Counted from the first letter of the stretch, positions 8,501 to 53,189 are shown. The stretch is 64,000 nt of DNA from a virus (IMGVR_UViG_3300042009_000020:37780-101779), one strand, 5' to 3'. A program made the numbers and translations. Notes: generated from the sequence alone by a model not told the origin.

Positions 8501-11500
8501 AGGAAACAATCTTTACCAAGCCACACAAAGTGTACCACTCGACACATCTCCACCAAATGCTACATACTGGAAAAATGTGGGTGAGGTCATCACTGCATAT
8601 GATGCGTTGGCTTCTCAGGTATCCACTAACACCACTAACATCACACAACAGGGTAATACACTCACTACCCAAGCTGGTCAGTTAACAGCTTTGACAACCC
8701 GAGTAAATACTGCTGAAGGTAACATCACTGGTAACAGTACAGCGATCACCAACCTTCAAACAACAGTGACCACACAAGGGAACAGTATTACCTCTCAAGG
8801 GAGTTTGATTACCGGTCTTCGGTCTGATGTAACTAGTCTGCAAACCGGACAATCTGGTAATGCTTCAGCGATCACTTCGTTAACCACACGAGTTACAACC
8901 GCCGAAGGAACGATTACTTCACAAGGTCAGTCAATTACTTCACTCAACGCCACTGTTGGGACTTTACAAACTGACTTAAATGGTGTAGAATCTACCGTAC
9001 TAGGACAGGGAACGGCCATTAATGGATTGACAACTACGGTCACCCAGCAAGGCAACACCCTTACTTCCCACGGTACAAGTATCACAGCACTTGAGAACAG
9101 TGTTTCGGATATCCAAACAGATGTATCTGGATTGACAACCACTGTTACCGGTCAAGGTACTTCCATCACCAATTTGCAAAACACTGTAACTCAGCAAGGT
9201 AACACAATCACAGCTCAGGCTCAGGACATTACAACCCTGAAATCTGATGTGTTGATTGATAAGACTGATATCAGCGGGCTCAAGACTACAACGACAGCAC
9301 AAGGTACTGCGATTACAAACTTGCAGACGACTGTGACCTCCCAAGGGAACAGCATCACATCAAACAGCAACAGTATCACCAACCTGACCAGCGATCTTCA
9401 CTTCAATGAATTGGATGCTCTCTACGAAGGTAATGAAACTGATGCTCAAATTGCTGATGCATTGGTCATCTCAAAAGCTACAGCTTCCGCAACAGAATCT
9501 CTGACAACGACAGTAACTTCTCATGAAGGTATTATCACAGCACAAGGTCAATCAATTACAGACTTGAAGGCTGCTCTTGAAGATTCGGATGGTAATATTG
9601 TTGGTCAAGCTAGTGCAATCGAGAGTCTTAAAACCAGTGTCACTCAACAAGGTAATACAATCAACTCACAAGGTGCTAGCATTACCAGTCTGGATAACAG
9701 CTTGGCAACCACTAACACCAATGTGGATGCTGCCCAACAAGCAGCAACTGATGCCAATACATTAGCTGGTGGAAAGGGTAAAGTATTCTTCCAAGCTTCG
9801 GCTCCTGCTGTTGGTGAGCAATTAAGTCAGAACCTTTGGATTGATACTACCGGGAACGCAAACACGCCTAAACGCTGGAATGGCTCGGCATGGGTAGCTG
9901 TAACTGACAAGGTAGCGACTGACGCTGCAACAGCAGCTGCTAACGCACTTACTCAAGTAGCTACAAAGGCTGATGCTTCAGCAGTGACGGCATTGACAAC
10001 CCGAGTAACTAACGCAGAAGGAACGATTACTTCACAAGGCACAAGCATCACCAGCTTGAACAACAGCCTGACAGTCACTAACACTAACGTGACAGCAGCT
10101 CAGAACGCAGCTCAGGCTGCTAGTGATCTTGCTGGTATCAAAGGTGAAGTGATCTACGGAAGCACAGCACCAACAACTGCACAACGTCTGCCTCAAAACC
10201 TTTGGATTGATACCACAAGTGGAGCAAACACTCCGAAGAGATGGTTGACGAACGCTTGGGTAGTTGTAACTGATAAAGTGGCTACAGACGCAGCAGCCGC
10301 TGCTGCAAGTGCTTTGACACAAGTTGCAACCAAAGCTGAAGCTAGTGCAGTAACATCGTTAACAACTCGCGTGACAAGTGCAGAGGGAACGATTACTTCC
10401 CAAGGTACAAGCATTACCAACCTGAACAACAGTTTGACGACTACCAATACCAACGTTAGTGCTGCACAAACAGCAGCTCAAGCTGCCAGTGATCTTGCTG
10501 GTACTAAAGGTAAGGTTCTGGTACAAACTACAACACCTGTTACCGCTGATCAACTTCCACAGAACTTGTGGATTGACATCACCAGCAGCAACAACACTCC
10601 TAAGAGATGGAACGGAAGTGCGTGGGTTGTGGTAACTGACAAGGTTGCTACTGATGCAGCAGCAGCCGCTGCTAATGCTTTGAGTGTTGCCAATACAAAG
10701 GCTGATGCATCTGCACTTAATGCCTTGACTACACGGGTTACCTCTGTTGAAGGTGTCACCACTTCACAAGGTTCTAGTATCACCACGTTGACAAACAACC
10801 TCAGTACCACTAACACCAACGTTACAGCCGCTCAGGCAGCAGCAGACGCTGCTAACACTCTTGCTGGTGGAAAGGGTAAGGTGTTCTATGGAAGTACAGC
10901 CCCTGCTACAGCAGAGCGTTTGAGTCAGAACCTCTGGATTGATACAACTGGTGGTTCTAACACACCTAAAAGATGGGATGGTTCAGCATGGACTGCTGTA
11001 ACTGATAAAGTGGCTACAGATGCCGCCATTGCTGCTGCTAACGCTTTAAGTGTTGCTAACACCAAGGCTGATGCCTCTGCTGTGACAGCTCTGACAAGTC
11101 GTGTAACAACGGCTGAAGGTAGTATCAGTTCACAGGGTACAAGCATTACAACGCTGAACAACAGTCTGACAACCACTAACAACAATGTAACCGCTGCTCA
11201 GGCTGCTGCTCAGGCCGCATCTGACCAAGCCGGTGCTAAAGGTGAAGTGATCTATGGTAGTACTGCTCCAGCAGTTGAGAAACGTCTTCCACAGAACTTG
11301 TGGATCGACACCACTGGTAATGCAAACACTCCTAAACGTTGGTTGACAAACGCATGGGTTGTGGTAACCGATAAGGTAGCTACTGATGCTGCAACAGCAG
11401 CAGCTAACGCACTTGCTCAGGTTGCTCTCAAAGCAGATAGTACAGCACTCACAGCTTTGACAAACACTGTTACCCAACAAGGTACTGACATCTCAGCGAA

Positions 11501-14500
11501 CGCTGGTAACATCACCATACTCAATACGGAGGTTCATTTCCAAGAGTTGGATGAATTGTACGCTGGTAATGAAACAGACGCCCAGATTGCAGACGCATTG
11601 ATGATTGCAAAAGGTACTGCTTCTGCTAACGAGTCATTGACTTCGGAAGTTACACAGCAGGGTGATTTGATTAAGGCTCAGGCCGAAAGCATTACTGACC
11701 TTGCATCGTCGTTGTCCTCAGTTGATGGTGATGTTTCTGCTCAAGGTGTTGCGATTGAAAATCTGAAAACTGTCACAACAGCTCAAGGCAATACAATCAA
11801 CTCTCAGAGTACAAGTCTCACGTCGTTGACCAACTCGTTGACCGTTACTAACACCAATGTCACAGCTGCGCAAACCGCTGCTGATGCTGCAAACACGTTA
11901 GCCGGTGGTAAAGGTAAGGTTATCGTCCAGAACGCAGCACCTGATGTTGCAGACAGGTTGGCACAGAACCTCTGGATCGACACCACTAGTGGAGCGAACA
12001 CTCCTAAAAGATGGTTGACTAGTGCATGGGTTGCAGTGACAGACAAAGTAGCTACCGATGCAGCAGCCGCTGCGGCAAGTGCACTTAGTCAAGTTGCAAC
12101 TAAGGCTGAAGCCAGTGCATTGACTTCATTGACCACTCGTGTGACAAGTGCTGAAGGAACAATAACAACTCAAGGTCAATCAATTACAACCTTGAACAAC
12201 TCTCTAACTACAACTAACACTAATGTGACAGCCGCTCAGGCTGCTGCGGATGCAGCGAATACATTAGCTGGTGGAAAGGGTAAAGTTATTGTTCAAACCG
12301 CTGCTCCAGCAGTTGGTGATCGACTTGCTCAGAACTTGTGGATTGACATTACAGGTAATGCTAATACCCCGAAACGTTGGGATGGAAGTGCTTGGACTGC
12401 TGTTACCGATAAGGTAGCTACTGATGCAGCAGCAGCCGCTGCTAACGCATTGAGTGTTGCTAACACTAAAGCAGACGCTTCAGCTGTAACGGCTCTGACA
12501 AGTCGTGTAACTACTGTAGAAGGCACTGTAACAACTCAGGGTCAAAGTATTACAACTCTGAATAACAGTCTGACTACTACCAATACCAATGTCACTACTG
12601 CTCAGGCAGCAGCTGATGCCGCTAACACCCTTGCGGGTGGTAAAGGTAAGGTGATGGTTCAAAGTGCTGCACCGGCTGTCGGAGATAGACTTGCTCAAAA
12701 CCTTTGGATTGATACAACAGGTAACGCCAATACTCCAAAGAGATGGGACGGTAGCAACTGGACTGCTGTGACTGACAAAGTGGCAACAGATGCAGCAGCC
12801 GCTGCTGCTAACGCCTTGAGTGTTGCTAATACTAAAGCTGATTCGTCAGCGGTATCAAGTTTGACAACACGAGTTACAACTGCTGAAGGTTTGATCACAA
12901 GTCAAGGTTCAAGTATTACTTCGCTGAATAACAGTCTGACTACTACTAACACTAACGTGACAACAGCTCAAAACGCTGCACAAGCTGCTAGTGATTTGGC
13001 TGGTAGTAAAGGCAAAGTGTTCTATCAAACTGCTGAACCTGCTGTTGGTGAAAGACTGTCGCAAAACCTTTGGATAGACATCACTGGTGCTGCAAATACA
13101 CCTAAGCGGTGGAACGGCAGTGCATGGGCAGCTGTAACTGATAAAGTGGCTACTGATGCAGCTACAGCTGCTGCAAGTGCGTTGACACAAGTAGCAACTA
13201 AAGCGGATGCTTCGGCATTGACAGCCTTGACTAACACTGTGACCTCCCAAGGTACTAGTATTACAACCAACGCTAGCAATATCACCCTGCTCAATACTGA
13301 CGTTCACTTTCAAGAGTTGGATGAGTTGTATGTCGGTAATGAAACTGATGCTCAAATTGCTGATGCGTTGATGATCGCTAATGGTGCTGCTTCTGCCAAT
13401 GAGTCGTTGACTGCTGAAGTTACACAACAAGGGGATCTGCTCACGGCTCAGGCTGTAATGATCACAGACCTTTCGAGTGAACTTTCTAATGTTGACGGTG
13501 ATGTGGTTGCCCAAGGGACGGCTATTGAAAACCTGAAAACTGTAACAACAGCACAAGGTAATACAATCAATTCCCACGGTGTATCGATCACATCTCTCAC
13601 TAACCGTGTGACAAGCGCTGAAGGTAACATCACGGGTCAAGCTACTGCTCTATCTGCTCTGGATACAAGAGTAACATCAACCGAAGGTACAGTGACTTCC
13701 CAAGGCACTAGTATTACAAGTTTGACAAGCTCCCTCGCCACAACCAACACTAACGTCACAACAGCCCAGAACGCAGCCAACGCTGCGAATACATTGGCTG
13801 GTGGTAAGGGTAAGGTTCTGGTACAAACCACAACGCCAGTGACAGCTGATCAACTCGTACAGAACCTTTGGATAGACATCACTGGTAGTGCGAACACGCC
13901 AAAACGTTGGAATGGTTCAGCTTGGGTTGCCGTGACAGATAAGGTAGCTACTGATGCAGCAGCCGCCGCTGCTAACGCTCTCTCAGTAGCAAACACCAAA
14001 GCTGATGCTGGTGCTGTAACCACTTTGACAACTCGTGTAACCAACGCTGAAAACAGTATCACTGCCTCGGCAACGAAGCTTGATGGTGTCTACGCTCAAG
14101 TTAACCCTACACTTGCTGGTGACGATGTTGGTCTTGCTGGTTCTGATAGTTATATGGTTGGTGTCTGGTCTGAAACCTCTGCTCGTATTGAGGATGGTGT
14201 TGTTTTGGGTTCACGTGTTGATACTGTTCAAGTTTCTAGTGATCAGGCGTTGACACTGGCTGAAGCTAACACTGCTGCTGTTCAACAAGTGTCACAAGCA
14301 CAGGTTGATGCAGACGGTAGAGCAAGCGCAATGTGGTCTGTCAAGTTGCAAGTTAACCAGTTCGGTCAGTATGTTACAGCTGGTATTGGTCTTGGTATTG
14401 AGAACGGTCCTGCTGGTCTGCAAAGTACATTCTTGGTGAACGCTGATACATTCGCAATCACTAACGGTGTTGATGCAAACCTAAGTGCACCATTTGTAGT

Positions 14501-14753
14501 GAATGGTGGTCAAGTATTCATCAAAGACGCATTCATTGCCAACGGTAGTATTACAATGTTGAAGATTGGAGACACTCTGCAATCTGATGACTTTGTTGCC
14601 GGTATCCAAGGATGGAGGTTGACTAAAGCTGGTACATTTGAAATCAACGGTCATGTACCCGGACAAGGTACAATGGTTATGACTAACCGCTCTTTGAGAG
14701 TATATGACGTAAACAACGTCAAGCGTGTGCAACTTGGGGATCTATCGGAATGA
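5511..14753 (+). CDS. J: host specificity / central tail fibre protein J, massively repeat-expanded (3080 aa)
   Basis: N-terminus (GGKGGG..HTP..NLLSV) and first ~900 aa align with lambda gpJ incl. FN3 domain; then ~1800 aa of Thr/Ala/Ser-rich tandem repeats; distinct C-terminal domain. Confidence 0.9.
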   Translation: MLDYEIHGGKGGGDKPHTPVETPNNLLSVAYAKVLIAVAEGELAGVPTNQDIFLDGTPLANPDGSLNFGGVKWEWRSGTQDQTYIQGLPEVSTEYNVGVELKSTTPWVRNITKTELDGVRVTFQWPALLEQKSNGDTVGVSMDYKIQLSKDGGAFTDYKTYTISGKTNTTYERTHRIDLPKATTGWIIRAVKLTADTTSGTIQDTMTVKSVAEVVDVKQRYPNTALLYVEFDSRMFGGGSIPKVSVRTKGRVIRVPDNYDPVARTYSGVWSGAFKWAWSDNPAWVYHDIITQDRFGLGNKVSLNMVDKWALYEISQHCDVMVDNGYNVGVLQPRHTCNIYIQEKRDAWQVLRDIASIFNGMTYWNGNQFTAIADKQEPFNNAPVFSRSNVINGRFDYAAADDKSIYTSALVSYDEPENHYNTAVESTFETEQILRWGGDRQIEISAIGCTSRGEAQRRGKYALITNMYNRTVSFRTGLQGLNDEVMPGKLIHVVDPLIGGRPFTGRIKAAVGTVLTLDRTVDAVAGDIMYITKSDGVSEGRTISAVAGNIVTLQVAYTELPKPNAVWYLEAADLKSQLFRVTKITSPEESVYEIEGVEYNDSKYAAVDTGARLEPRPISVVPPNIQQPPTNVNIISQTYVEQMMSVNTMVISWNQTQNAVGYEVQWKVENGDWVNAGTTGALSVTVKGIYTGQYVARVRAINAFDIKSIWVSSALTTLNGKVGLPPALTSLSVEPLVFGMKLNWTFPVGAEDTARTEIMYSPTQFFASATKLGDFAYPQTSHSINGLKAGQTFYFWGRLVDRTGNIGPYFPLTTQNGVMGLSSTDVAEYEEYFIDMINESALGQQLGAKIDKIEIIEADLDLVEIDLDLVKTDVDQIKTDVVQLEVEFDTAIDKVNTNVNWIESQIAGVELQLKNDLVITQGELQTNLDELQVDLEAVDQILADALVTTKKDVDDIKEDVVGLNTTIDTLQDQVDGITDALEYNPNRTYAAGEATRVGNNLYQATQSVPLDTSPPNATYWKNVGEVITAYDALASQVSTNTTNITQQGNTLTTQAGQLTALTTRVNTAEGNITGNSTAITNLQTTVTTQGNSITSQGSLITGLRSDVTSLQTGQSGNASAITSLTTRVTTAEGTITSQGQSITSLNATVGTLQTDLNGVESTVLGQGTAINGLTTTVTQQGNTLTSHGTSITALENSVSDIQTDVSGLTTTVTGQGTSITNLQNTVTQQGNTITAQAQDITTLKSDVLIDKTDISGLKTTTTAQGTAITNLQTTVTSQGNSITSNSNSITNLTSDLHFNELDALYEGNETDAQIADALVISKATASATESLTTTVTSHEGIITAQGQSITDLKAALEDSDGNIVGQASAIESLKTSVTQQGNTINSQGASITSLDNSLATTNTNVDAAQQAATDANTLAGGKGKVFFQASAPAVGEQLSQNLWIDTTGNANTPKRWNGSAWVAVTDKVATDAATAAANALTQVATKADASAVTALTTRVTNAEGTITSQGTSITSLNNSLTVTNTNVTAAQNAAQAASDLAGIKGEVIYGSTAPTTAQRLPQNLWIDTTSGANTPKRWLTNAWVVVTDKVATDAAAAAASALTQVATKAEASAVTSLTTRVTSAEGTITSQGTSITNLNNSLTTTNTNVSAAQTAAQAASDLAGTKGKVLVQTTTPVTADQLPQNLWIDITSSNNTPKRWNGSAWVVVTDKVATDAAAAAANALSVANTKADASALNALTTRVTSVEGVTTSQGSSITTLTNNLSTTNTNVTAAQAAADAANTLAGGKGKVFYGSTAPATAERLSQNLWIDTTGGSNTPKRWDGSAWTAVTDKVATDAAIAAANALSVANTKADASAVTALTSRVTTAEGSISSQGTSITTLNNSLTTTNNNVTAAQAAAQAASDQAGAKGEVIYGSTAPAVEKRLPQNLWIDTTGNANTPKRWLTNAWVVVTDKVATDAATAAANALAQVALKADSTALTALTNTVTQQGTDISANAGNITILNTEVHFQELDELYAGNETDAQIADALMIAKGTASANESLTSEVTQQGDLIKAQAESITDLASSLSSVDGDVSAQGVAIENLKTVTTAQGNTINSQSTSLTSLTNSLTVTNTNVTAAQTAADAANTLAGGKGKVIVQNAAPDVADRLAQNLWIDTTSGANTPKRWLTSAWVAVTDKVATDAAAAAASALSQVATKAEASALTSLTTRVTSAEGTITTQGQSITTLNNSLTTTNTNVTAAQAAADAANTLAGGKGKVIVQTAAPAVGDRLAQNLWIDITGNANTPKRWDGSAWTAVTDKVATDAAAAAANALSVANTKADASAVTALTSRVTTVEGTVTTQGQSITTLNNSLTTTNTNVTTAQAAADAANTLAGGKGKVMVQSAAPAVGDRLAQNLWIDTTGNANTPKRWDGSNWTAVTDKVATDAAAAAANALSVANTKADSSAVSSLTTRVTTAEGLITSQGSSITSLNNSLTTTNTNVTTAQNAAQAASDLAGSKGKVFYQTAEPAVGERLSQNLWIDITGAANTPKRWNGSAWAAVTDKVATDAATAAASALTQVATKADASALTALTNTVTSQGTSITTNASNITLLNTDVHFQELDELYVGNETDAQIADALMIANGAASANESLTAEVTQQGDLLTAQAVMITDLSSELSNVDGDVVAQGTAIENLKTVTTAQGNTINSHGVSITSLTNRVTSAEGNITGQATALSALDTRVTSTEGTVTSQGTSITSLTSSLATTNTNVTTAQNAANAANTLAGGKGKVLVQTTTPVTADQLVQNLWIDITGSANTPKRWNGSAWVAVTDKVATDAAAAAANALSVANTKADAGAVTTLTTRVTNAENSITASATKLDGVYAQVNPTLAGDDVGLAGSDSYMVGVWSETSARIEDGVVLGSRVDTVQVSSDQALTLAEANTAAVQQVSQAQVDADGRASAMWSVKLQVNQFGQYVTAGIGLGIENGPAGLQSTFLVNADTFAITNGVDANLSAPFVVNGGQVFIKDAFIANGSITMLKIGDTLQSDDFVAGIQGWRLTKAGTFEINGHVPGQGTMVMTNRSLRVYDVNNVKRVQLGDLSE
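8630..14060. repeat. hierarchical in-frame tandem repeats inside J
   Basis: ~10 copies of a 363-369 bp unit (NLWIDTTGNANTPKRW.GSAWV.VTDKVATDAA..) at 9833,10196,10559,10928,11291,11958,12327,12696,13062,13863, grouped in three super-repeats, each preceded by a ~300-bp variant segment (HF.ELD.LY.GNETDAQIADAL); shorter QG.SIT.L heptad-like repeats from ~8640. Confidence 0.9.
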
Positions 14754-24131: not shown

Positions 24132-24141
24132 AATACAACTA

Positions 24142-24176
24142 AACCCCGGATCACTTACGTGCCGGGGCTTTTTCAT
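24142..24176. terminator. bidirectional intrinsic terminator
   Basis: CCCCGG..loop..CCGGGG stem then CTTTTTC; sits between convergent operons. Confidence 0.75.
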
Positions 24177-24179
24177 GTC

Positions 24180-24353
24180 TTAAATCCAGTCAGACAATGT
24201 TGTATTTACATGGTCCTCTGTAATACAAACATAATCATGTCGTTTAGATAATTCTTCTTTAACTAGAAGACAGTCTTCATAACTTCCTTTGAACTTGATG
24301 TCATTAAAGCCACCTACTGGGTAATAGTGATCATGAGCAACTACGTAATGCAT
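24180..24353 (-). CDS. hypothetical small protein (57 aa)
   Basis: ATGA overlap with upstream gene stop; MHYVVAHDHYYPVGGFNDIKF...; below 60-aa ORF-track cutoff. Confidence 0.35.
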   Translation of the reverse strand: MHYVVAHDHYYPVGGFNDIKFKGSYEDCLLVKEELSKRHDYVCITEDHVNTTLSDWI

Positions 24354-24586
24354 TAGCTAAACATCTCCTCTAGTGTTTTGTTCATTAGTATGTCATATAG
24401 GTGATGGCCGGGAAACAACCCATCTTGTCGCAGTCTGACATCCGCTCTGTGCTTGATTAGATCGAAAGCGTTAGCTTCACCCATGTTAGTTCGTACAGCG
24501 TCAGCACATACCCAATGGCACTTCAGAAGACCGTTGAATACTTGTCCGTCAACCATTGGTAGATTACAACCGGGGCAGTTATTCAT
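24353..24586 (-). CDS. Zn-ribbon-like small protein
   Basis: CPGCN...CHWVC cysteine pairs. Confidence 0.45.
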   Translation of the reverse strand: MNNCPGCNLPMVDGQVFNGLLKCHWVCADAVRTNMGEANAFDLIKHRADVRLRQDGLFPGHHLYDILMNKTLEEMFS

Positions 24587-24783
24587 CGTCCTTCACTCCA
24601 TCGAATCTTACGAACCATCTCTTCAGCTTGGTGCGCATATCGAGGGTCATCACAGAATACTGCAATTGTTGAAAGTAGTGCAAACATTTCAATATAATGA
24701 TCAGAGTTGATCTTCACCTGTTGTTGCTCAATACGTGTAATGTGATCCATTTGAATCTCCTTATTTGTTGTACCAGTGAACAT
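24583..24783 (-). CDS. hypothetical protein
   Basis: 66 aa, overlapping start/stop with neighbours. Confidence 0.4.
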   Translation of the reverse strand: MFTGTTNKEIQMDHITRIEQQQVKINSDHYIEMFALLSTIAVFCDDPRYAHQAEEMVRKIRWSEGR

Positions 24784-24976
24784 GAGTTACACCTTCTGGA
24801 ATCTCTTTACCACGGAAATACCATTCCCAAACATCTACACCGTAGTTGAAGTGTGTTTCATTACCAAGCCAACCGCAACCATCATCTGGAATGAAGGCAC
24901 CACACTTTACACTCTGAAGAAAGTCTTTGATTGTCATTACATCTGAGAAATAATCACGCTCTTGATTAAAAATCAT
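24761..24976 (-). CDS. hypothetical protein
   Basis: 71 aa Trp/His-rich ORF in leftward operon. Confidence 0.4.
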   Translation of the reverse strand: MIFNQERDYFSDVMTIKDFLQSVKCGAFIPDDGCGWLGNETHFNYGVDVWEWYFRGKEIPEGVTHVHWYNK

Positions 24977-25200
24977 TCTGTTCGTTTAGCCTCATGTTCA
25001 AATGTACCGACAGGATACGTTGGTTTGATTCGTTGTTCAACACTAGAAACCTTCTTGGAAGCAACATTAGACACTTCACAATGCTTAACCGTAGGTTGTT
25101 CAGCTTTACTATGTGAATAGGTGGATAAAGCACCACCTATGATAATACCAAAGAAAACACCAATCAATGTACAACCAAGTTTGTCAAAACCGTGCATCAA
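24973..25200 (-). CDS. small membrane protein
   Basis: 75 aa, one TMD (IGVFFGIIIGGALSTY). Confidence 0.4.
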   Translation of the reverse strand: MMHGFDKLGCTLIGVFFGIIIGGALSTYSHSKAEQPTVKHCEVSNVASKKVSSVEQRIKPTYPVGTFEHEAKRTE

Positions 25201-25388
25201 TCACCATCCATATCAAGTTCTAGTTGTACGTCAAGCTCTTGCTCAAGCTTTTCAATATCTGATGACAACTCTTGGGTTACAAAGATTGCTTCACCAAAAC
25301 CATCACAGTTCTCGATATCGTCAAGTCGCTGACGAATACGTTGTAGTTCAATATACCAAGATGTTCCGTAGTCACGAATGTTCATCAT
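25197..25388 (-). CDS. hypothetical acidic protein
   Basis: 63 aa, overlaps neighbours by 4 nt. Confidence 0.4.
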   Translation of the reverse strand: MMNIRDYGTSWYIELQRIRQRLDDIENCDGFGEAIFVTQELSSDIEKLEQELDVQLELDMDGD

Positions 25389-26527
25389 TCCTCCTTTAGC
25401 AAATACGAATTTGACACAATCTTAAAGCTAAAATCACGGTCAATACTTTTGTACACAAATCCCTCACGCCTTTTACCATTCAAACCGGATGGTCCATCAG
25501 CATCTTCAATAGCTTCGACAACTGTTGGCAAGAGCGATACAATACCAGCTTGTGGTACGCCGGTCAACCCTTGATCATAAAGAATGTTCAACCGCTCTTT
25601 CGGTAGCAAATAACGCTTTGCATCAATATCATAGATATCGTAGATGTAGAATTGATTAGACTTGACACCTTCAAAGTTCTTTTGAATCGATGGACCAACC
25701 ATTTCACCCTGAATAGCTAGATTGCGATTCAGTTTAACGAGTGTATCAATCACACCAGAGTTCCGAGCCATTTGAGTGAAAGCATTCACATCTGCTGGAA
25801 TATGAGTTACAAACTTAGCATGACGGATACCATGTTTCTTAACTTGTTTGAAGTAATCCTTGAACGACTTAATGAAACCCTTTTTCTCAACTTGCATTCG
25901 GAACGATACATTGCGAGACGCAACGCCAGTCACACCATCTTTAATCCAGACAGTCATAGAAGAACCATCAAGTTTGAATGTCTTCTCGAATAGTTCACCA
26001 TCTTCTACCGACTGCAAGTAACGAGGGACAATGTTCTGTACACGGTTCTGATCAGTCTTTGGAATGAACGATGGGAATGGTTTAGTTGCACGACCTTTAA
26101 CACCGTCAGCAACACCAGCGTTATTCATCGAACGCTCTTCACCCTTCTCATACTTCATGATACCAAGAGTCTTTGTGAAGTCCATATCTACATTGCAAGT
26201 TGGACTAGCATTCACATCAGACAATGGTACACAAAAACCTTGCGACAATTGTTTCATCAACTTCGCTGTCTTGATGCGAGCATAACCCTTACCATCAATC
26301 TCAAACAGCAACTTAGATGATAGTTTGGTCAGTGAAGCAAATGCAGGGTGGTCAGTTGGCAAAAGTGAATCGACCTCGAAATACATGCATTTGTCGCCAG
26401 CTTTATACAAACCCTTCTGGACAACTACCTGCCAACCACCAATAAAAGCCAATTCAATTCGTTCAGCCCCTTCGATTTCATGCAGTGAATCAATTTGTAC
26501 AACACGGGCCAACTTACGGTCAGACAT
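25385..26527 (-). CDS. ATP-dependent RNA ligase (Rnl, nucleotidyltransferase motif I KLDGSS)
   Basis: 380 aa; N-terminal OB-like domain (KLARVVQI..IEGAERIELA..GWQVVVQKG) then KLDGSS motif I; family common in phages. Confidence 0.6.
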   Translation of the reverse strand: MSDRKLARVVQIDSLHEIEGAERIELAFIGGWQVVVQKGLYKAGDKCMYFEVDSLLPTDHPAFASLTKLSSKLLFEIDGKGYARIKTAKLMKQLSQGFCVPLSDVNASPTCNVDMDFTKTLGIMKYEKGEERSMNNAGVADGVKGRATKPFPSFIPKTDQNRVQNIVPRYLQSVEDGELFEKTFKLDGSSMTVWIKDGVTGVASRNVSFRMQVEKKGFIKSFKDYFKQVKKHGIRHAKFVTHIPADVNAFTQMARNSGVIDTLVKLNRNLAIQGEMVGPSIQKNFEGVKSNQFYIYDIYDIDAKRYLLPKERLNILYDQGLTGVPQAGIVSLLPTVVEAIEDADGPSGLNGKRREGFVYKSIDRDFSFKIVSNSYLLKEE

Positions 26528-26808
26528 TAAAACTCTCCATTTTGTTTATCAATTGCATTTTGTACGATCAAAGTGATTCGATCATCATTTTTGTTAGCGA
26601 AGTATTGTAACTCATCTTCATCGAAAGACCACCAACCGATTGAGTCCTTCCCTTTGGCAGATGAAACACGGAAAGCCGTTTCTCGGTATCCGTAAAATTC
26701 AGTGTCACAAGCAGCGTTGCTGTTGAATGTGCCTTTAACATGGTAATCCTCAATATCAGTTACGTTGAACTTTGTGTATTCCGAGAATACTAAATCATTG
26801 AACTCCAA
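26527..26808 (-). CDS. hypothetical protein
   Basis: 93 aa ORF downstream of helicase, stop/start overlap with ligase gene. Confidence 0.45.
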   Translation of the reverse strand: MEFNDLVFSEYTKFNVTDIEDYHVKGTFNSNAACDTEFYGYRETAFRVSSAKGKDSIGWWSFDEDELQYFANKNDDRITLIVQNAIDKQNGEF

Positions 26809-26864
26809 TCGTCAATACTCCTCAAGTTATCCCTCAAATATAATGCTTCACGAACGGTGTTGCA

Positions 26865-26892
26865 GACAATACATTGCCACCCTTGTATTGTC
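26865..26892. promoter_or_regulatory. perfect 9-bp inverted repeat GACAATACA-N10-TGTATTGTC (operator or RNA hairpin)
   Basis: in 100-nt gap between helicase and downstream gene; overlaps a possible internal minus-strand promoter (TTCTGACA..TATTGT). Confidence 0.4.
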
Positions 26893-26911
26893 AGAACCCA
26901 TATCTGATACT

Positions 26912-28450
26912 TCATTTTTGAACCTTTCGATCTTTTATCCGTTCAATCATATGAATCACAGTACCATTGTAACCCAGTACTTTCTTGGTACGAGTCAGAC
27001 CAACATACAGTAAATTGCGTTCCATATCTTGTAGACCAACCCATTCACCTTGTTGATTGTACGGCGATGGAAAGTCATCTGCAAGGATTACAACATCAAA
27101 CTCACGACCTTTCGCCTTGTGAGCAGTTGTCAACGTTACATCTGGATCAGTACAGTTCTTATGCTTGGACAGTACACCCAGCACTTTGTAGACAGAACCA
27201 TTCTGCACCATGTTGAATACACGAAGCAACTCACCTTGAACAGCTTGGGCTTCCGTCTCACACTCTTTCCAACTTGCAAACTGTACAAGGCTTTCGTGTT
27301 TAACCTTGGTCATGTTTCCGCGTTGTAGTTCGATTGCAGAATCAAGCAGTTTGGTAAAGTCAGATACATCAATTTCTAGATTGACTTTCTTACCTTGTTC
27401 CAACAGGTCAACGGCTTCAAAGATCAAAGCACCGTTAGTGCGGAACAACATGGTGTACGGACCATCCCAAATCTCTTGAGGGATTTCATGCTTTGGCATA
27501 GCTTGAGTGGTTAGTTTCTCCCAACCTTTTACCGCTGTGATCTTATGACCATCTTGAGCCAGAACACAGTCAGCAAGATCACCAATTGTTTGACCGAAAC
27601 GGAAGCTCTTGGACAAACCAGCTTCAGGCCAATCAAGTTCAAGCATTGCATTCTTTGCACCACGCCACGAATAGATGTTCTGATAACCATCACCTACAGC
27701 ATACAACCGACATTTATCTTTCTGACGCAAGAAGATATCAAGTACAACTTCGTTGACATCCTGACATTCATCCAGATACAACACTTCATAACGAGATAGG
27801 TCAGGTTTAGACAGTTGGAACAACTTCAGGTATGTATCGTGTGTAGCCAGCACATCAGAGCGAAGGTCGGTACGTAGACGCCATAGCTTCTGGGCACAAC
27901 TCAGCACCAGATATTTGTACGCACGCATACTCTTTTCATCTTTCAACAGAATTTGATCACATGGACCAATAGACACATGTTTGTATCCAATCTCTTCGTC
28001 AGCAGATTGTTCGTATTTAGCAACGGTTTCCTTGATGGCAACACCAACACCACCTTGTTTCATTTTGCGAGCTTCACGCTCACCTTCAATCATGTACAGA
28101 AAATCACCAGTTTTGAAATACTTGGCAATCTCAGTACCAGTACCAGCCACGTTTTTGTAAGCACCTTGTGGGCGAGTCAGTTTATTGCGAAGTTGTGCAC
28201 CAAACGAAGCATACGCCAAACTGTGAGTGGTTCGACACTCAACCCACGATGGGAAGCGCCCACGAGCCTCGTCAGCCAACGATTTGTTGAAGGTTAACAT
28301 CAGACTAGGGACTACGTGTTCTTCAGCCACCATCGTCAACGTAGACGTTTTGGCAGCACCAGCATAAGCAGAGATTTTCATTGCACGATGGATCTTGGAC
28401 ATTGCAACTACGTTGTTCTGTTCATCTGTTGGTACGATCTTGTTGCTCAC
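26912..28450 (-). CDS. SF1 UvrD/PcrA-like DNA helicase (GTG start)
   Basis: Walker A AGAAKTST, motif II LDECQD, motif V TAHKAKGREFD, motif VI VGLTRTKK; AAGGAG SD before GTG. Confidence 0.75.
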   Translation of the reverse strand: MSNKIVPTDEQNNVVAMSKIHRAMKISAYAGAAKTSTLTMVAEEHVVPSLMLTFNKSLADEARGRFPSWVECRTTHSLAYASFGAQLRNKLTRPQGAYKNVAGTGTEIAKYFKTGDFLYMIEGEREARKMKQGGVGVAIKETVAKYEQSADEEIGYKHVSIGPCDQILLKDEKSMRAYKYLVLSCAQKLWRLRTDLRSDVLATHDTYLKLFQLSKPDLSRYEVLYLDECQDVNEVVLDIFLRQKDKCRLYAVGDGYQNIYSWRGAKNAMLELDWPEAGLSKSFRFGQTIGDLADCVLAQDGHKITAVKGWEKLTTQAMPKHEIPQEIWDGPYTMLFRTNGALIFEAVDLLEQGKKVNLEIDVSDFTKLLDSAIELQRGNMTKVKHESLVQFASWKECETEAQAVQGELLRVFNMVQNGSVYKVLGVLSKHKNCTDPDVTLTTAHKAKGREFDVVILADDFPSPYNQQGEWVGLQDMERNLLYVGLTRTKKVLGYNGTVIHMIERIKDRKVQK

Positions 28451-28595
28451 TTAAACCACTCCTTGATTCGCCACCAGAGTGGCTTGTTCATATTCGATGG
28501 AAGCAATTGTACACGGTTCTGAGGAGGAGTGCTACCACCAATACAGCTCCAACCTGAATCATTTGTCTTCTTTAATCGTTTCGAACCATCTGTCT

Positions 28596-28919
28596 TCACT
28601 CCTCACCCAATTCTTTCTTGAGGGTTTCTAACTGAGCGCGTTTGAAGGCAAGAACTCGATCCCGTTCATCTTTCTCTTTGGTCAGGCGCTCAGCATATTC
28701 CTCATCGGTTTCAATCCGACGATCATACACGTTCACAACCTGTCTGTCTGAGTCACCCCAGCTACCATACTGAGTTTCGTATTCCAGAATAATCACACTG
28801 TCAATTGTGTTCTCTTCTTTGAGTCTGGTCAAACGTTCAATTACTTCGTCAATAGGACCAGACAAATCATATGTCAAGTCCTGATACTTGCGTAGTACGT
28901 CGATTACTTTCTTAGTCAT
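28596..28919 (-). CDS. hypothetical protein
   Basis: 107 aa charged/coiled-coil ORF. Confidence 0.45.
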   Translation of the reverse strand: MTKKVIDVLRKYQDLTYDLSGPIDEVIERLTRLKEENTIDSVIILEYETQYGSWGDSDRQVVNVYDRRIETDEEYAERLTKEKDERDRVLAFKRAQLETLKKELGEE

Positions 28920-29107
28920 TACACTAGCTCCGACAATGCATCTCGTGCATGTTGAAGGTCGTCATAAGCAGTGTCACAGTTTTCTTTCAGATGTGCCAGT
29001 TCACCAATCAGGTCATCCAGTTTGTCGCGTTCAACACCAACGGCTTTCATCCGCTTCTCAATCTGCTTGATTGCTGTCTTCATTGACATTGTTGGTTTGG
29101 TATTCAT
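28919..29107 (-). CDS. hypothetical protein
   Basis: 62 aa. Confidence 0.35.
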   Translation of the reverse strand: MNTKPTMSMKTAIKQIEKRMKAVGVERDKLDDLIGELAHLKENCDTAYDDLQHARDALSELV

Positions 29108-29361
29108 GATTTGTGTTCCTTACAGTATTTGTTTGGGCAGTAGATCGTACAAACCTCCTTGACCCTCAGATGAGTGTTGCAGATTTTACAGTGGTATCCG
29201 GGTTTGTCAATCTCTTCTACAGTTTCCGCTTTGAATTCAACATTGTTTAGATTATGTTGAACACCTTTCAGGATTGTATCCGCATCACGTTTTGAATGGC
29301 AAGTAATCGTCTCAACGACCACATTCGTTGCTCTCTCGGTGATTCGTACAGAGTATTTCAT
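29104..29361 (-). CDS. Zn-finger small protein
   Basis: HCKICN...YCPNKYCKEH cysteine motifs. Confidence 0.45.
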   Translation of the reverse strand: MKYSVRITERATNVVVETITCHSKRDADTILKGVQHNLNNVEFKAETVEEIDKPGYHCKICNTHLRVKEVCTIYCPNKYCKEHKS

Positions 29362-29606
29362 TTCAATTGCTCCAGTGGAATCAGGTCAGTGAGTGGACGA
29401 CACAGTTCATTCAACGGTTTACCCTCACCCTTGAACCAGCGTTGTGCCTGCACTCCATGTGGATGATCAGTGATACTACTTGCCCAATATTCACACACGA
29501 AATGGTATTTGTCACCCTCAATTCGATACCACCCACCATTATATGCTTCTTGCTCTGGTGCCCAGTGTGTTGCGCCAGATGGTGCTTTTGTGATATTTGG
29601 TCGCAT
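29358..29606 (-). CDS. hypothetical protein (first gene of leftward operon)
   Basis: 82 aa, just downstream of minus-strand promoter. Confidence 0.45.
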   Translation of the reverse strand: MRPNITKAPSGATHWAPEQEAYNGGWYRIEGDKYHFVCEYWASSITDHPHGVQAQRWFKGEGKPLNELCRPLTDLIPLEQLK

Positions 29607-29632
29607 GGTTATTTCTCCTTGGGAATGTCACC

Positions 29633-29660
29633 ATCATACACCAGTGAATCAGCACGTCAA
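29633..29660 (-). promoter_or_regulatory. leftward promoter TTGACG-N16-TATGAT
   Basis: read on minus strand; drives 29606..24180 operon. Confidence 0.5.
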
Positions 29661-29675
29661 GGGGTATTTTGGGTA

Positions 29676-29704
29676 TTGACAGGAAATGATTTCCTCTGTA
29701 GAAT
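29676..29704 (+). promoter_or_regulatory. rightward promoter TTGACA-N17-TAGAAT
   Basis: exact consensus -35, TAGAAT -10; followed by ~330-nt untranslated leader. Confidence 0.65.
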
Positions 29705-30038
29705 GGGCAACCTTGACGTACAGAACGTCTCGCACTGAGAGAGAAATGTCATAATCACTCACCGGCTCAGTGTTAAAGGTCATGAAGAAAGCAGACCAAC
29801 ATAATGTGGAAATGGACCTTTAGTGGTTCTGGTACGACATTGCGGCTACTAGTAACAGTAGAAGCGTACCACGGGAGAAAGGTGTTGCTGCCTTATCCTA
29901 TCTCGTGTACCTTGCGTACATGCCTGATGAATCAGGGTGCTAGAATCGGTGAGCATGAAGATTTTCCTTGGACCTCGTTTGTAGGTCTTAAGGGGAAATC
30001 TATCTGTACTATCTCAATGAGCATATTAGGAGAGCAGT

Positions 30039-30236
30039 GTGAAGAGTGAAGGTGTTAAAGATATAGTGAAATGGTTAGATAAGAGATGTAAGGAGTTAAA
30101 GAAAGAGGTTGACGATAGGTCTGTATTCGGTGATGATTACTTTCAGGATCAAGCGAGAGCAAGATTTCAAGAATGTTTATCCATCAAGATCAGTACTGAG
30201 AAGTACATGAAATTGTTGAGACACCAAGGTGAATAA
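30039..30236 (+). CDS. hypothetical protein (GTG start)
   Basis: 65 aa, first ORF of rightward early cluster. Confidence 0.4.
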   Translation: MKSEGVKDIVKWLDKRCKELKKEVDDRSVFGDDYFQDQARARFQECLSIKISTEKYMKLLRHQGE

Positions 30237-38042: not shown

Positions 38043-38966
38043 ATGACGTTGACTAGAATGATTTACAGTGACAACCTCTTGTCACAAGACAAGATTGGTA
38101 TTTACAAGATCGAAAACCTTGTGAACGGTAAGGTCTATGTCGGTAAAACTGTTAATTTCCGAAGTCGCTACAACACCTACAACTCAGCATTCAGAACTAA
38201 TCGGACGACTCATATCAACCGATATCTAATGAGTTCTTTGTCAAAGTATGGCATTAGCAATTTCAAATTCAGCAAGCTTGAATCTTGCTCACTTTCTGAG
38301 ACTGGGGATCGAGAACTTTTCTGGATGGATCAGTTGGACTCGTGTTCTCGCAACGCTGGTTACAATCTGAGACGCGACAGTTCTACCGGCATGGAAACTC
38401 ATGAGGACACACGTGCTCACCTTTCTAGCAAAATTATCCAGCAATATGCAGATGGAAAGCGTGATAAAAGAAAGATCAGTGAATTCTTTAAAGGGTTTTG
38501 GTCGAATCCTGTTGTCAAAGACGAAATGGCGAAGCGTGTTGCTGAAGTTAACCGTTCTTATTTCATTCAGAGAGACAAGACCACATCTGACATTGTTTGT
38601 GTTTGGGATGGTATAAACCAGATCAAAGCAGCAAATCCACAATGGAAATGGCAGAATATTTATGCTGCGTGCAATGGAAGCAAACCATCATACCTTGGCT
38701 TCAAATGGGAACGCTCATCTGAAATCCCAGAAGGTTGTGAGCATCTTGTCCACAGAGGTGAGAATGTTCTGTTCAAGGATGTGGATAAAACACATTTACC
38801 TCGAACCAACTCACTGGTGTACACAGTGCATCATGGTGAATTTAAGGGTGAATACACTGGTGTTGAACTTTCTAAAATTTATGCGGCCATGTACAATGCA
38901 TTCTGCAAAGCAAAGTGTAATGAAATTTACTGGAAACGTGGTAAAACCAAAATAACTAGGGGATAA
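38043..38966 (+). CDS. GIY-YIG homing endonuclease
   Basis: GIYKIENLVNGKVYVGKT..R..Y motif; inserted between two polymerase-associated ORFs. Confidence 0.8.
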   Translation: MTLTRMIYSDNLLSQDKIGIYKIENLVNGKVYVGKTVNFRSRYNTYNSAFRTNRTTHINRYLMSSLSKYGISNFKFSKLESCSLSETGDRELFWMDQLDSCSRNAGYNLRRDSSTGMETHEDTRAHLSSKIIQQYADGKRDKRKISEFFKGFWSNPVVKDEMAKRVAEVNRSYFIQRDKTTSDIVCVWDGINQIKAANPQWKWQNIYAACNGSKPSYLGFKWERSSEIPEGCEHLVHRGENVLFKDVDKTHLPRTNSLVYTVHHGEFKGEYTGVELSKIYAAMYNAFCKAKCNEIYWKRGKTKITRG

Positions 38967-38974
38967 AAGGCATC

Positions 38975-39511
38975 ATGAAACATCAAGAGATTCTGGATGC
39001 TTTGCGTGAAACGGTTAGCAGTGGTTCGATCAAGACAAAAGGAGCATATGAGTGTCTACCATATGATGAATTGGGTTGGCACAAGAACCATTCGTCTATG
39101 GTCATTCAGTTGGCGGTTGCTGCTCATTTGCTTGAGCTTTGTGACTATAAGACATTTATTATGAATCATAAAGACCCTTTTGATTTCTGTCTTAGAACAA
39201 AGGTTCCAAGGTCTAGTCGTCTTGTCATGGTTTTTAAAGACAGTTTTGGTGTTGATGAAGAGGTGGTGGTTCAGAATATCTGCCGGTATGTTCCCGTGAA
39301 GGATGGTGGTAAGTTGGTGAAAATAATGCCACCGCTACCCGGTGGTACAGATGAGAGACGACTGAGCATCGACAGCAAGTATGACGTGAGAGAATGCAAT
39401 GACATGGATGACTTTGATTGGAATATTGATTATGATTACTATTTTGACAAAGCCGAAAAGCTTGTAAATGCTATCATCGGTGATGACTCGGACGAAGGTG
39501 AAGAAGATTGA
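38975..39511 (+). CDS. hypothetical protein; candidate C-terminal (thumb) fragment of the split DNA polymerase
   Basis: 178 aa, acidic tail; position right after HEG insertion; no motif match I can verify. Confidence 0.35.
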   Translation: MKHQEILDALRETVSSGSIKTKGAYECLPYDELGWHKNHSSMVIQLAVAAHLLELCDYKTFIMNHKDPFDFCLRTKVPRSSRLVMVFKDSFGVDEEVVVQNICRYVPVKDGGKLVKIMPPLPGGTDERRLSIDSKYDVRECNDMDDFDWNIDYDYYFDKAEKLVNAIIGDDSDEGEED

Positions 39512-39520
39512 AAATAGTGG

Positions 39521-39548
39521 TTGACAGACGATCAGGATCACGTAGAAT
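39521..39548 (+). promoter_or_regulatory. promoter TTGACA-N16-TAGAAT
   Basis: consensus -35; ORF-track ATG 39521 lies inside it, real start at 39575. Confidence 0.6.
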
Positions 39549-39574
39549 GGTCGTCATCAACAAGGAGATACGAA

Positions 39575-39745
39575 ATGAACACACATGGTTTGATCTTGAT
39601 TACTGTTGCATTGGTCATCTGGTCAACGGCTGTTCAGTACACAATACCAAGCAGGGAGGGTAGGGTGGTTATTGGTATACTAGGTGCAGCCATCATTGGT
39701 GGTGGTTTCGCTCTCAAAGGCATCACATTACTTGGAGGTTATTGA
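39575..39745 (+). CDS. small membrane protein
   Basis: 56 aa, 2 TMDs, AAGGAGA SD. Confidence 0.45.
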   Translation: MNTHGLILITVALVIWSTAVQYTIPSREGRVVIGILGAAIIGGGFALKGITLLGGY

Positions 39746-39748
39746 AAA

Positions 39749-40006
39749 ATGAGTCAACTTGCAAATCTGGTAGATCGAAAACTTTCTGTTTGCTCACAAA
39801 TCGAGTTTGGTGATATCCTGCAAGGTATCGACAGTGAGAAGGATGCCCTTGATTTGGTAATGGCGCTCGACCTTGCTCAAGAAGATGTTGGCTTCACAAT
39901 CAAGCTGATCAATATGTTGTTCAAGTCCCTGCGTGTGGATCTGGACAAGCAAGAAGCTAAAGACGTGATCAAAGAACTGAAACAACTCAACAAGAGTATT
40001 GCTTAA
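39749..40006 (+). CDS. hypothetical protein
   Basis: 85 aa. Confidence 0.45.
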   Translation: MSQLANLVDRKLSVCSQIEFGDILQGIDSEKDALDLVMALDLAQEDVGFTIKLINMLFKSLRVDLDKQEAKDVIKELKQLNKSIA

Positions 40007-47320: not shown

Positions 47321-47507
47321 GAAAGTCTATGGTTACGTGATCATCGATAGTGAAACGGGTGAACAATGGGGTGATACATACGCTTCTAAAGCGGGTGCAG
47401 CCGCATCATATAACAGTCACTTCAACAGTCCGTGGCGTAACGTTGATCGTCACAAGTTTGCAGACCAGATGGTGTATGTTCGGAAAGAGTTGGTGTTAGC
47501 GGAATGA
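47313..47507 (+). CDS. hypothetical protein
   Basis: 64 aa. Confidence 0.4.
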   Translation: MSKKVYGYVIIDSETGEQWGDTYASKAGAAASYNSHFNSPWRNVDRHKFADQMVYVRKELVLAE

Positions 47508-48103
47508 CAGTACCTAGTTCTGCTGACCTAAAGAAGAGAGCTGAGAAGCTTGCGCAGTTTAATAAACGGGTTGGACCAGATGGTCGTCCAATTGAGAAGC
47601 AGGTTATCTCTGTTGTTCGATCAGCAATCCGCTCAGCATGGATGAAAAGTGATGTCAAGCTGGCGTTTATGTACGGGCGAACAATTCCTGACACGGATGA
47701 CACTACTCGTACTAAGTGGTTGTATAAATGTGAGATTTGCAGTAAGATGTTCAAAGAAACTGAGATTGAAGTAGACCACAAGCACGGACATCACAAATTC
47801 ACTAAGCTCGATGAATTCCCTGACTATTTCAATAACATTCTGATGGTTCGTGCTGAAGACCTTCAGATACTGTGTAAGGACAACAAGAAGACAGGATATA
47901 CTGGTTGCCACTCGATCAAAACCCTGAGTGAATCACACGGATTGTCGTTTGATGAAGCCAAGGCAACCAAGCAAGCCATTGAAATGAATAAAGAAAGCGT
48001 TAAAAATGTGGTTGCTTTCCTCACCGAGCATGGTTATAATGCAGCCAAGACGAAAGAGAAGCGGCGAGAGCAGCTAATCGAGCACTTCAGAAAGGAGATA
48101 TAA
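47504..48103 (+). CDS. HNH endonuclease
   Basis: CEICSK..EVDHKHGHH..CKDN..GCH zinc-binding HNH arrangement. Confidence 0.65.
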   Translation: MTVPSSADLKKRAEKLAQFNKRVGPDGRPIEKQVISVVRSAIRSAWMKSDVKLAFMYGRTIPDTDDTTRTKWLYKCEICSKMFKETEIEVDHKHGHHKFTKLDEFPDYFNNILMVRAEDLQILCKDNKKTGYTGCHSIKTLSESHGLSFDEAKATKQAIEMNKESVKNVVAFLTEHGYNAAKTKEKRREQLIEHFRKEI

Positions 48104-53157: not shown

Positions 53158-53189
53158 GGTCGTCCAGTCATTTGAAAGGAGAGAACAAG

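Follow-up and report, generated by a model that had tools for sequence, protein, structure and literature searches.

The virus sequence IMGVR_UViG_3300042009_000020:37780-101779, a stretch of 64,000 nucleotides (nt) that is called the window here, covers approximately 64 kb of a genome of approximately 104 kb and carries a block of genes on the opposite strand. The block forms a predicted transcription unit that reads leftward. The phage is a relative of Plaisancevirus (phiPMW and vB_PpS_SYP, the latter called SYP below), and Pseudomonas is probably its host genus. We propose, with a probability of about 0.7, that the block is a conserved operon in which a superfamily 1 (SF1) helicase is the constant cargo and an RNA ligase of the Rnl5 family is a separate, optional cassette whose product would seal nicks in duplexes. 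The proposal is built on a predicted transcription unit, the family assignments of the two enzymes, intact catalytic motifs, and the separate distribution of the two enzymes among phages. The locus itself adds little, since the enzyme families are known and the operon is essentially identical to one already annotated in phiPMW. For both families, annotated members exist in hundreds of phage genomes. Since natural phages with and without Rnl5 differ by a clean cassette, they offer a convenient system for assigning a physiological role to Rnl5.

A conserved leftward operon

A megablast search of the block against GenBank phages returned a sole match of 138 nt inside the ligase gene. Since no close nucleotide relative was found, relatives were sought by protein searches. 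The eight relatives are phiPMW (Plaisancevirus), SYP, and six IMG/VR contigs of approximately 97-105 kb; counts out of nine genomes include the window. All eight share a gene order of tail and lysis genes, a hairpin, the opposite-strand block, and divergent promoters. Beyond the divergent promoters, the relatives encode a band-7 protein, a primase-helicase, and a DNA polymerase. The block of the window is located between the lysis cassette on one side and the primase-helicase, the DNA polymerase, and a nucleotide-metabolism region on the other.

ORF calling gives 15 open reading frames (ORFs) on the minus strand at 24180-29606, tiled with zero intergenic gap and with start/stop codon overlaps of 1-23 nt. 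Negative GC skew is confined to the 24-30 kb bins of the window. The other long minus-strand ORFs of the window lack PHROG matches and share their DNA with overlapping or tiled plus-strand genes. These ORFs look spurious, leaving the block as the sole opposite-strand transcription unit in the window. The original prediction for this DNA had said the same, and had given the block its own promoter, a divergent promoter next to it, and a bidirectional terminator at its end. All of these elements can be located (Table 1).

The back-to-back promoter pair is present in all eight relatives. Downstream of the leftward promoter, an AAGGAGA ribosome-binding site is followed by the ATG at 29606. A consensus match by itself is weak evidence for a promoter. 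A scan returned 27 promoter-like sites against a chance expectation of 17 +/- 4, so that the case for the promoters rests on conservation across relatives and not on the consensus. A strong promoter-like site also lies within the gene of the 85-amino acid (aa) protein (29210-29183). Three relatives have an extra consensus promoter, TTGACA-N17-TAGAAT, approximately 30 nt upstream of the helicase start (L008 ~9942, L009 ~9941, L010 ~9939); none is found there in the window phage.

The terminator hairpin has a predicted stability of -18 to -22 kcal/mol, is flanked by an A-tract and a T-tract, and keeps the same position in all nine genomes; its inner stem and loop vary in sequence among them. It was missed by the automatic scan because the stem is bulged. 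The G+C-rich hairpin, the A-tract/T-tract flanks, and the convergent genes on both sides together predict a bidirectional intrinsic terminator. The T-tract of the minus strand (TTTAGTTGTATTTT) is interrupted and weaker than that of the plus strand.

In the proposed mechanism, host RNA polymerase would start at the leftward sigma70-type promoter, back-to-back with the rightward one. It would read 15 translationally coupled genes and stop at the hairpin shared with the convergent lysis-side genes. The rightward promoter would drive a structured RNA as well as the early and replication genes that follow it.

Assignment of the ligase to the Rnl5 family

In Pfam searches, the 380-aa protein matches PF21189 (PHA02142 OB-fold) and then PF09414 (RNA_ligase). 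The PF21189 match spans residues 6-102 and profile positions 1-92 of 92 (E = 3.7e-22), and this region aligns with the N-domain of the Naegleria gruberi RNA ligase, NgrRnl. Against the NCBIfam equivalog TIGR02306 (RNA_lig_DRB0094), the protein scores 168.9 bits, above the cut-off of 151.15. It also matches the solved NgrRnl (5cot) with E = 1.7e-63 and phrog_968 ('RNA ligase') with E = 5e-114. KLDGSS (motif I) occupies residues 185-190, and K185 is the lysine nucleophile by alignment to NgrRnl. Motifs III (QGE), IIIa (FYIYDIYD), IV (REGFVYK), and V (FSFK), as well as an upstream arginine, align with NgrRnl. Pfam gives no match to PF09511 (RNA_lig_T4_1, the Rnl1 family), to DNA_ligase_A_M (PF01068), or to capping-enzyme domains. 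Among PDB chains, DNA ligases are matched only marginally (E = 0.013 or weaker). The profile matches agree with the earlier claim of an ATP-dependent RNA ligase, which a match to DNA ligases or capping enzymes would have contradicted, and assign the protein, by homology, to the Rnl5 family of DraRnl and NgrRnl.

Rnl5 enzymes are Mn2+-dependent and seal 3'-OH/5'-PO4 duplex nicks with at least two ribonucleotides on the 3'-OH side, and DNA is tolerated in both the 5'-PO4 strand and the template strand (PMC5397189). By homology, the phage ligase would be adenylylated on Lys185. It would then seal 3'-OH/5'-PO4 nicks in duplexes in which the 3'-OH strand is ribonucleotide-terminated. Such sealing should need no end-healing by a kinase or phosphatase.

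The original prediction presented the ligase as a classical counter-defence enzyme of tRNA repair and raised the possibility of a polynucleotide kinase-phosphatase (Pnkp) elsewhere in the genome. Pnkp (kinase and HAD phosphatase) is indeed encoded in all eight relatives, far from the operon, but none is found in the 64-kb window. The SYP Pnkp and Rnl1 find nothing in the window by tblastn, and Pfam detects no kinase or phosphatase domain in 20 further proteins of the window, all of them 133 aa or longer and encoded downstream of the block. In the complete genome of SYP, the Rnl1-type ligase gp168 (PF09511) is encoded beside a bifunctional Pnkp (AAA_33 and HAD_PNKP). An Rnl1-type ligase adjacent to Pnkp is confirmed in five relatives, namely SYP and the four IMG/VR contigs that were checked for adjacency. 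In SYP and phiPMW, approximately 35-40 kb separate the operon from this classical locus, with approximately 35 kb in SYP, and the corresponding part of the window phage's genome lies beyond the 64 kb covered. The tRNA-repair role is not borne out, as the ligase belongs to Rnl5 rather than Rnl1. Because the Pnkp-Rnl1 pair is encoded elsewhere in the relatives, Rnl5 appears to be an additional ligase in the lineage and not its equivalent of the T4 scheme. If it repairs RNA, it would supplement the Pnkp-Rnl1 system located at another site in the genome. SYP also encodes an ATP-dependent DNA ligase. As many as three ligases can thus occur in the lineage, apparently with separate tasks, namely Rnl1 alongside Pnkp, a DNA ligase, and the optional Rnl5.

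The UvrD/FBH1-like helicase

The 512-aa protein matches PF00580 (UvrD-helicase) with 42 bits (cut-off 23) and PF13361 (UvrD_C) with 45.5 bits (cut-off 25.6), and phrog_1967 with E = 4e-124. Its nearest solved relative is human FBH1 (9xzj, E = 7e-34). Since both UvrD domains exceed their cut-offs and the motifs can be located, the protein is, as previously suggested, an SF1 UvrD-like helicase. The protein has intact motifs Q, II (DECQD), III, V, and VI. The scores against the UvrD, Rep, and PcrA equivalogs of NCBIfam are 41-50 bits, and the cut-offs of 911-1144 are not reached. The Walker A motif is non-canonical (AYAGAAKTS, window 28343-28369, minus strand). In this phage helicase family, the motif reads AxAG[A/C][A/S/T]KT; all ten homologs examined, including that of PAK_P3, have Ala, Ser, or Thr where a glycine canonically precedes the lysine.

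Homologs of the helicase, annotated as DNA helicase, are widespread among virulent phages that infect Escherichia, Pseudomonas, Acinetobacter, and Vibrio. As its constant component, the operon would supply an SF1A helicase of the UvrD/FBH1-like type, accompanied by a few small partner ORFs; this helicase would act as a 3'-5' DNA translocase in replication, recombination, or repair. A decoy or defence function was also considered and rejected: a PADLOC scan linked the helicase to GajB only by a generic UvrD-motif likeness and gave no similarity for the remaining proteins.

Independent distribution of ligase and helicase

The helicase is encoded in the operon of all nine genomes, whereas the Rnl5 ligase is found in five of the nine. 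The complete genome of SYP has no Rnl5 homolog anywhere. In three IMG/VR relatives, of which approximately 21 kb around the operon were examined, the ligase-flanking genes are kept with no ligase between them, and in one they are directly adjacent. Pakpunavirus PAK_P2 and PAK_P4 and Flaumdravirus KIL1 carry Rnl5 in an equivalent opposite-strand islet past the lysis cassette, with no SF1 helicase. In Nankokuvirus PAK_P3, the genes around the helicase encode a DNA ligase, a DprA-like protein, and a dCMP deaminase, and Rnl5 is absent from this neighbourhood. Phage records with the helicase and those with the ligase differ in host range: the helicase occurs in 107 Escherichia records, and Escherichia is not among the ten commonest organism names of the 334 ligase-bearing records. 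The ratio of five to nine and the separate occurrence in other genera indicate that ligase and helicase are independent. The two seem to share an operon without a demonstrable common function.

The small neighbours of the ligase point in the same direction as judged from the PAK_P2 and KIL1 islets. No small ligase neighbour is common to these different genera, and the neighbours in PAK_P2 and KIL1 show no kinase or other domain in Pfam. In tblastn searches of the block proteins against both islets, one weak off-strand match was obtained besides the ligase (the 85-aa protein against KIL1, E = 1.5e-4), and it is taken as chance. The idea that the helicase and zinc-ribbon (Zn-ribbon) proteins join the ligase in a module is therefore not sustained, given a ligase in five operons, a helicase in nine, and ligase islets that lack a helicase. 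As for conservation in related phages, the operon, the promoters, the terminator, and the helicase are kept, but the ligase is kept only in part and the 85-aa protein is unique to the window phage.

The window ligase is approximately 60% identical to the ligases of P. syringae myoviruses and 49% identical to that of phiPMW, whereas the window helicase is 65% identical to the phiPMW helicase. An HNH endonuclease gene adjoins the ligase gene in phiPMW. The identity pattern and the HNH neighbour fit an exchangeable ligase cassette.

Role of the ligase and alternative explanations

The role slightly favoured for the ligase is that of an accessory enzyme that mends nicks in duplex RNA, for instance in tRNA or rRNA stems cleaved to leave 3'-OH/5'-P ends. 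One reason is that its patchy distribution fits a host-specific accessory gene. The other is that the OLD tRNase has been reported to cut the anticodon stem-loop. According to a 2026 preprint, OLD cuts mostly after nucleotides 27-29, and its double cut may be an adaptation against tRNA-ligating repair by phages. Almost equally likely is the repair of phage DNA at nicks with an RNA terminus.

Several points weigh against our proposal. The sole genetic evidence on an Rnl5 enzyme concerns DNA repair in D. radiodurans and not RNA repair (PMC5397189). The canonical glycine before the lysine is missing from Walker A of the helicase, whose ATPase activity is assumed. The absence of Rnl5 refers to the whole genome for SYP alone and to the region around the operon for the three IMG/VR relatives. 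The timing and use of the leftward promoter are deduced from its sequence and setting. PAK_P3 uses sigma70-like promoters in all infection phases, so an 'early' timing of the leftward operon cannot be claimed. The ligase islet of PAK_P4 lies outside the defined early (gp080-gp124) and late (gp001-gp034) regions.

A rather unlikely alternative is that Rnl5 and the helicase both function in the replication, recombination, or repair of phage DNA. The ligase would seal 3'-RNA nicks, such as primer ends or ribonucleotide-patched breaks, and the helicase would process the same intermediates. The operon adjoins the replication module, and the PAK_P3 homolog of the helicase lies among genes of DNA metabolism, as described above. 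Deletion of DraRnl slows genome reassembly after irradiation, and Rnl5 tolerates DNA in two of the strands that it joins or reads (PMC5397189). However, the ligase is dispensable in four of the nine related operons, SYP has a separate ATP-dependent DNA ligase without any Rnl5 homolog, and the ligase-helicase linkage is not conserved.

We give little credence to a combined reading in which Rnl5 is a stand-alone counter-defence enzyme and, separately, the RNA of approximately 290 nt at the divergent promoters is a new class of phage regulatory RNA. In such a case, Rnl5 would re-seal tRNA or rRNA stems nicked to 3'-OH/5'-PO4, and the Toprim-type OLD/PARIS class would provide the candidate nucleases. 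If this were true, such breaks would be the ones that the Pnkp-Rnl1 pair of the lineage is not built for, and the presence or absence of the ligase would mirror the defence repertoires of the hosts.

It is very improbable that the ligase, the helicase, and the Zn-ribbon proteins form one dedicated RNA-repair module for counter-defence, undoing the tRNA cuts made by host anticodon nucleases. In its favour are the predicted co-transcription and translational coupling of the genes, the classical counter-defence role of phage RNA ligases in the established biology of T4, and the patchy, accessory-like distribution of the ligase. Nevertheless, the enzyme is of the Rnl5 and not the Rnl1 type, and the relatives have their Pnkp-Rnl1 pair elsewhere. 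The helicase remains where the ligase is absent, other genera have the ligase without the helicase, no small neighbour follows the ligase across genera, and the 85-aa Cys protein is confined to the window phage.

That the whole block is a recently acquired foreign island, inserted like a moron, can practically be dismissed: its opposite strand, its own promoter and terminator, the closeness of its ligase to those of P. syringae myoviruses, and the HNH gene abutting the phiPMW ligase would fit, but the block, promoter pair, and terminator are kept in all eight relatives, an equivalent islet exists in Pakpunavirus and Flaumdravirus, the G+C content amounts to 42.3% in the block and 43.0% in the window, and only single cassettes (the ligase and the 85-aa protein) look exchangeable.

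Small proteins of the operon

The original prediction counted at least two small Cys4 proteins in the block. Two are found, and they differ in conservation. The 77-aa protein has the pattern C4-x2-C7 ... C23-x3-C27, and its four Cys are invariant in an alignment of eight genomes. The 85-aa protein (C58-x2-C61 ... C75-x4-C80) has no homolog in the eight relatives and no significant family match, so it is unique to the window phage. Neither protein has a fold-defining family match in Pfam or PHROG. The Cys4 proteins and the other small ORFs appear to be lineage-variable genes, without evidence of a partnership with the ligase. The 50-aa ORF is probably a real gene, because it is kept directly upstream of the helicase in seven of the eight relatives, with 44-86% identity. 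All features of the operon are listed in Table 1, together with loci of other genomes that are discussed in the text.

Table 1. Positions of the operon genes, their control elements, and related loci in other genomes (window coordinates unless a genome or record is named)
Feature	Position	Strand	Remarks
Rightward sigma70-like promoter TTGACA-N17-TAGAAT, divergent	29676..29704	+	consensus score 11/12
Leftward sigma70-like promoter TTGACG-N16-TATGAT	29633..29660	-	consensus score 10/12
Gene 1, 82 aa	29358..29606	-	weak phrog_3483 match; homologs with 46-52% identity in three IMG/VR relatives
85-aa Cys-rich protein, putative zinc ribbon (CxxC ... CxxxC/CxxxxC)	29104..29361	-	
62-aa protein	28919..29107	-	nothing significant in family search
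107-aa acidic protein	28596..28919	-	sub-threshold matches only (HTH_63, phrog_25568)
50-aa ORF	28447..28599	-	4-nt overlap with helicase start
512-aa SF1A UvrD/FBH1-like helicase	26912..28450	-	GTG start
41-aa ORF	26790..26915	-	homologs in 6/8 relatives
93-aa protein	26527..26808	-	homologs in 7/8 relatives, with or without ligase
380-aa Rnl5 RNA ligase (by homology)	25385..26527	-	
63-aa acidic protein	25197..25388	-	overlaps ligase stop codon; homologs only in two ligase-bearing relatives
75-aa protein, one hydrophobic helix	24973..25200	-	homologs in six relatives
71-aa protein	24761..24976	-	phrog_14149
66-aa protein	24583..24783	-	ORF call and comparison with relatives
77-aa Cys4 protein	24353..24586	-	phrog_13040, E = 1.6e-31
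Last gene, 57 aa	24180..24353	-	homologs in phiPMW and SYP
Predicted hairpin terminator AAACCCCGG..CCGGGGCTTTTT	24141..24173	.	between convergent genes; serves lysis-side genes and leftward operon
Pnkp locus, with adjacent Rnl1 where confirmed	SYP 84096-86215 (L015 34096-36215); phiPMW 38923-39798; also L019-L022, L028-L033		
Further copies of the structured RNA	L011 5079-5352; L012 5307-5582; L057 4051-4326; L058 1496-1779	-; -; +; +	
Coding sequences overlapping the structured RNA	SYP 47461-47706 (vBPpSSYP_113); phiPMW 82178-82567 (gp181)		annotated 'hypothetical protein'

A structured RNA at the divergent promoters

A structured RNA of approximately 290 nt (window 29728-30017, plus strand) lies directly downstream of the rightward promoter. 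The approximately 330 nt from this promoter to the first plus-strand ORF (GTG at 30039) show nucleotide conservation across all eight relatives, whereas the proteins are far more diverged. Using nhmmer, homologs were found in the analogous divergent intergenic region of Pakpunavirus PAK_P2, PAK_P4, and YS35 and of Flaumdravirus KIL1. Phage phiK7A1 has a copy in a divergent intergenic region, and in Otagovirus VCM a full-length copy is located upstream of the tRNA cluster, far away from the ligase gene. With the PAK_P2 copy as the blastn query, 158 Pseudomonas phage records are matched. The RNA is present with or without the Rnl5 ligase.

The core of the RNA is a 7-bp stem around an almost invariant loop, AGAGAAAUGUC-N6-CACUCACCG, in which all seven pairs covary. 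The 3' helix covaries too. Paired cells amount to 90.7% compared with 68.4% in shuffles. Double-sided changes number 61 against 24.6 +/- 4.2 in shuffles, none of 500 shuffles reaches 61, and slid controls give at most 14. G-U pairs place the RNA on the plus strand. From the all-genera alignment, RNAalifold recovers only two helices, as the variability of the central part is too high for MAFFT to align. When subgroups are folded separately, richer structures are predicted. In PAK_P2, a second promoter follows the RNA, and on this ground the RNA may be a stand-alone species rather than only a leader.

No known counterpart was found in the sources searched. A tRNA scan finds no tRNA in the window, and no Rfam family reaches the gathering threshold there. 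The RNA itself has no match in Rfam 15, and permissive scans of three versions return inconsistent chance matches only. Searching the core motif against bacterial genomes gives 28 matches, about the number estimated by chance for the pattern and the database size. None of them extends past the motif, and no true homolog was found among them. The literature holds nothing relevant on a Pakpunavirus non-coding RNA at this site. The 'sRNA' annotated in YS35 was considered as a known counterpart and rejected, as it is merely a 13-nt feature. Among the records listed, the RNA region is unannotated or lies under small coding sequences for 'hypothetical protein'. Two of the latter, vBPpSSYP_113 and phiPMW gp181, are probably mis-annotations. 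An RNA that is common to Pakpunavirus, Flaumdravirus, Otagovirus, and Plaisancevirus-like phages, some of them in phage therapy, is thus absent both from Rfam and from the annotations of the examined phage records.

Other features of the window

Outside the operon, a protein with a dATP/dGTP diphosphohydrolase N-terminal domain (PF18909, 52247-52864, plus strand) is encoded just upstream of a thymidylate-synthase-like protein (phrog_85, 53172-54152, plus strand). Ribonucleotide reductase subunits are encoded slightly downstream of the latter. This region may be a nucleotide-pool or base-modification module; its other scanned proteins have no Pfam match. GIY-YIG and NUMOD4/HNH homing-endonuclease-like genes (38043-38966 and 57384-58016, plus strand) are inserted within the replication and nucleotide-metabolism region. 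A tail protein of 3080 aa (5511-14753, plus strand) matches central tail fibre J-like families in its N-terminal part. Its internal part matches the same PHROG profiles repeatedly, in up to 15 separate stretches.

Comparison with known systems

The window ligase and the T4 Pnkp and Rnl1 pair have in common a phage ATP-dependent RNA ligase of the covalent nucleotidyltransferase superfamily, and counter-defence is conceivable for both. The window ligase differs in having no PF09511 domain and no Pnkp in the window. The substrates also differ: Rnl5 enzymes act on 3'-OH/5'-PO4 duplex nicks, whereas the T4 system acts on healed anticodon-loop breaks.

With DraRnl and NgrRnl, the ligase shares an N-terminal OB domain and a nucleotidyltransferase domain that ends just past motif V, and the match is full-length. 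Unlike NgrRnl, it has an insertion of approximately 37 aa (residues 211-247), and the length of the PHROG 968 profile suggests that this insertion is common to phage homologs. The window ligase is also phage-encoded, and its activity and substrate are predicted.

The helicase resembles UvrD, Rep, PcrA, and FBH1 in its Pfam UvrD N- and C-terminal domains and in motifs Q, II, III, V, and VI. It is, however, just 512 aa long and has no F-box. The Walker A motif is AGTGKT in FBH1 and AGAAKT in the phage helicase, compared with the canonical AGxGKT.

The closest counterparts of the ligase are the proteins annotated 'RNA ligase' in other phages, namely phiPMW gp160, gp038/gp039 of PAK_P2/PAK_P4, and KIL1 gp115, which are orthologs with 48-60% identity. 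They are encoded in the same type of short opposite-strand islet, between the lysis cassette and replication-side genes and bounded by divergent promoters and a convergent terminator. An SF1 helicase in the ligase islet is a feature of the Plaisancevirus-like lineage only, and in that lineage the ligase is present or absent depending on the genome.

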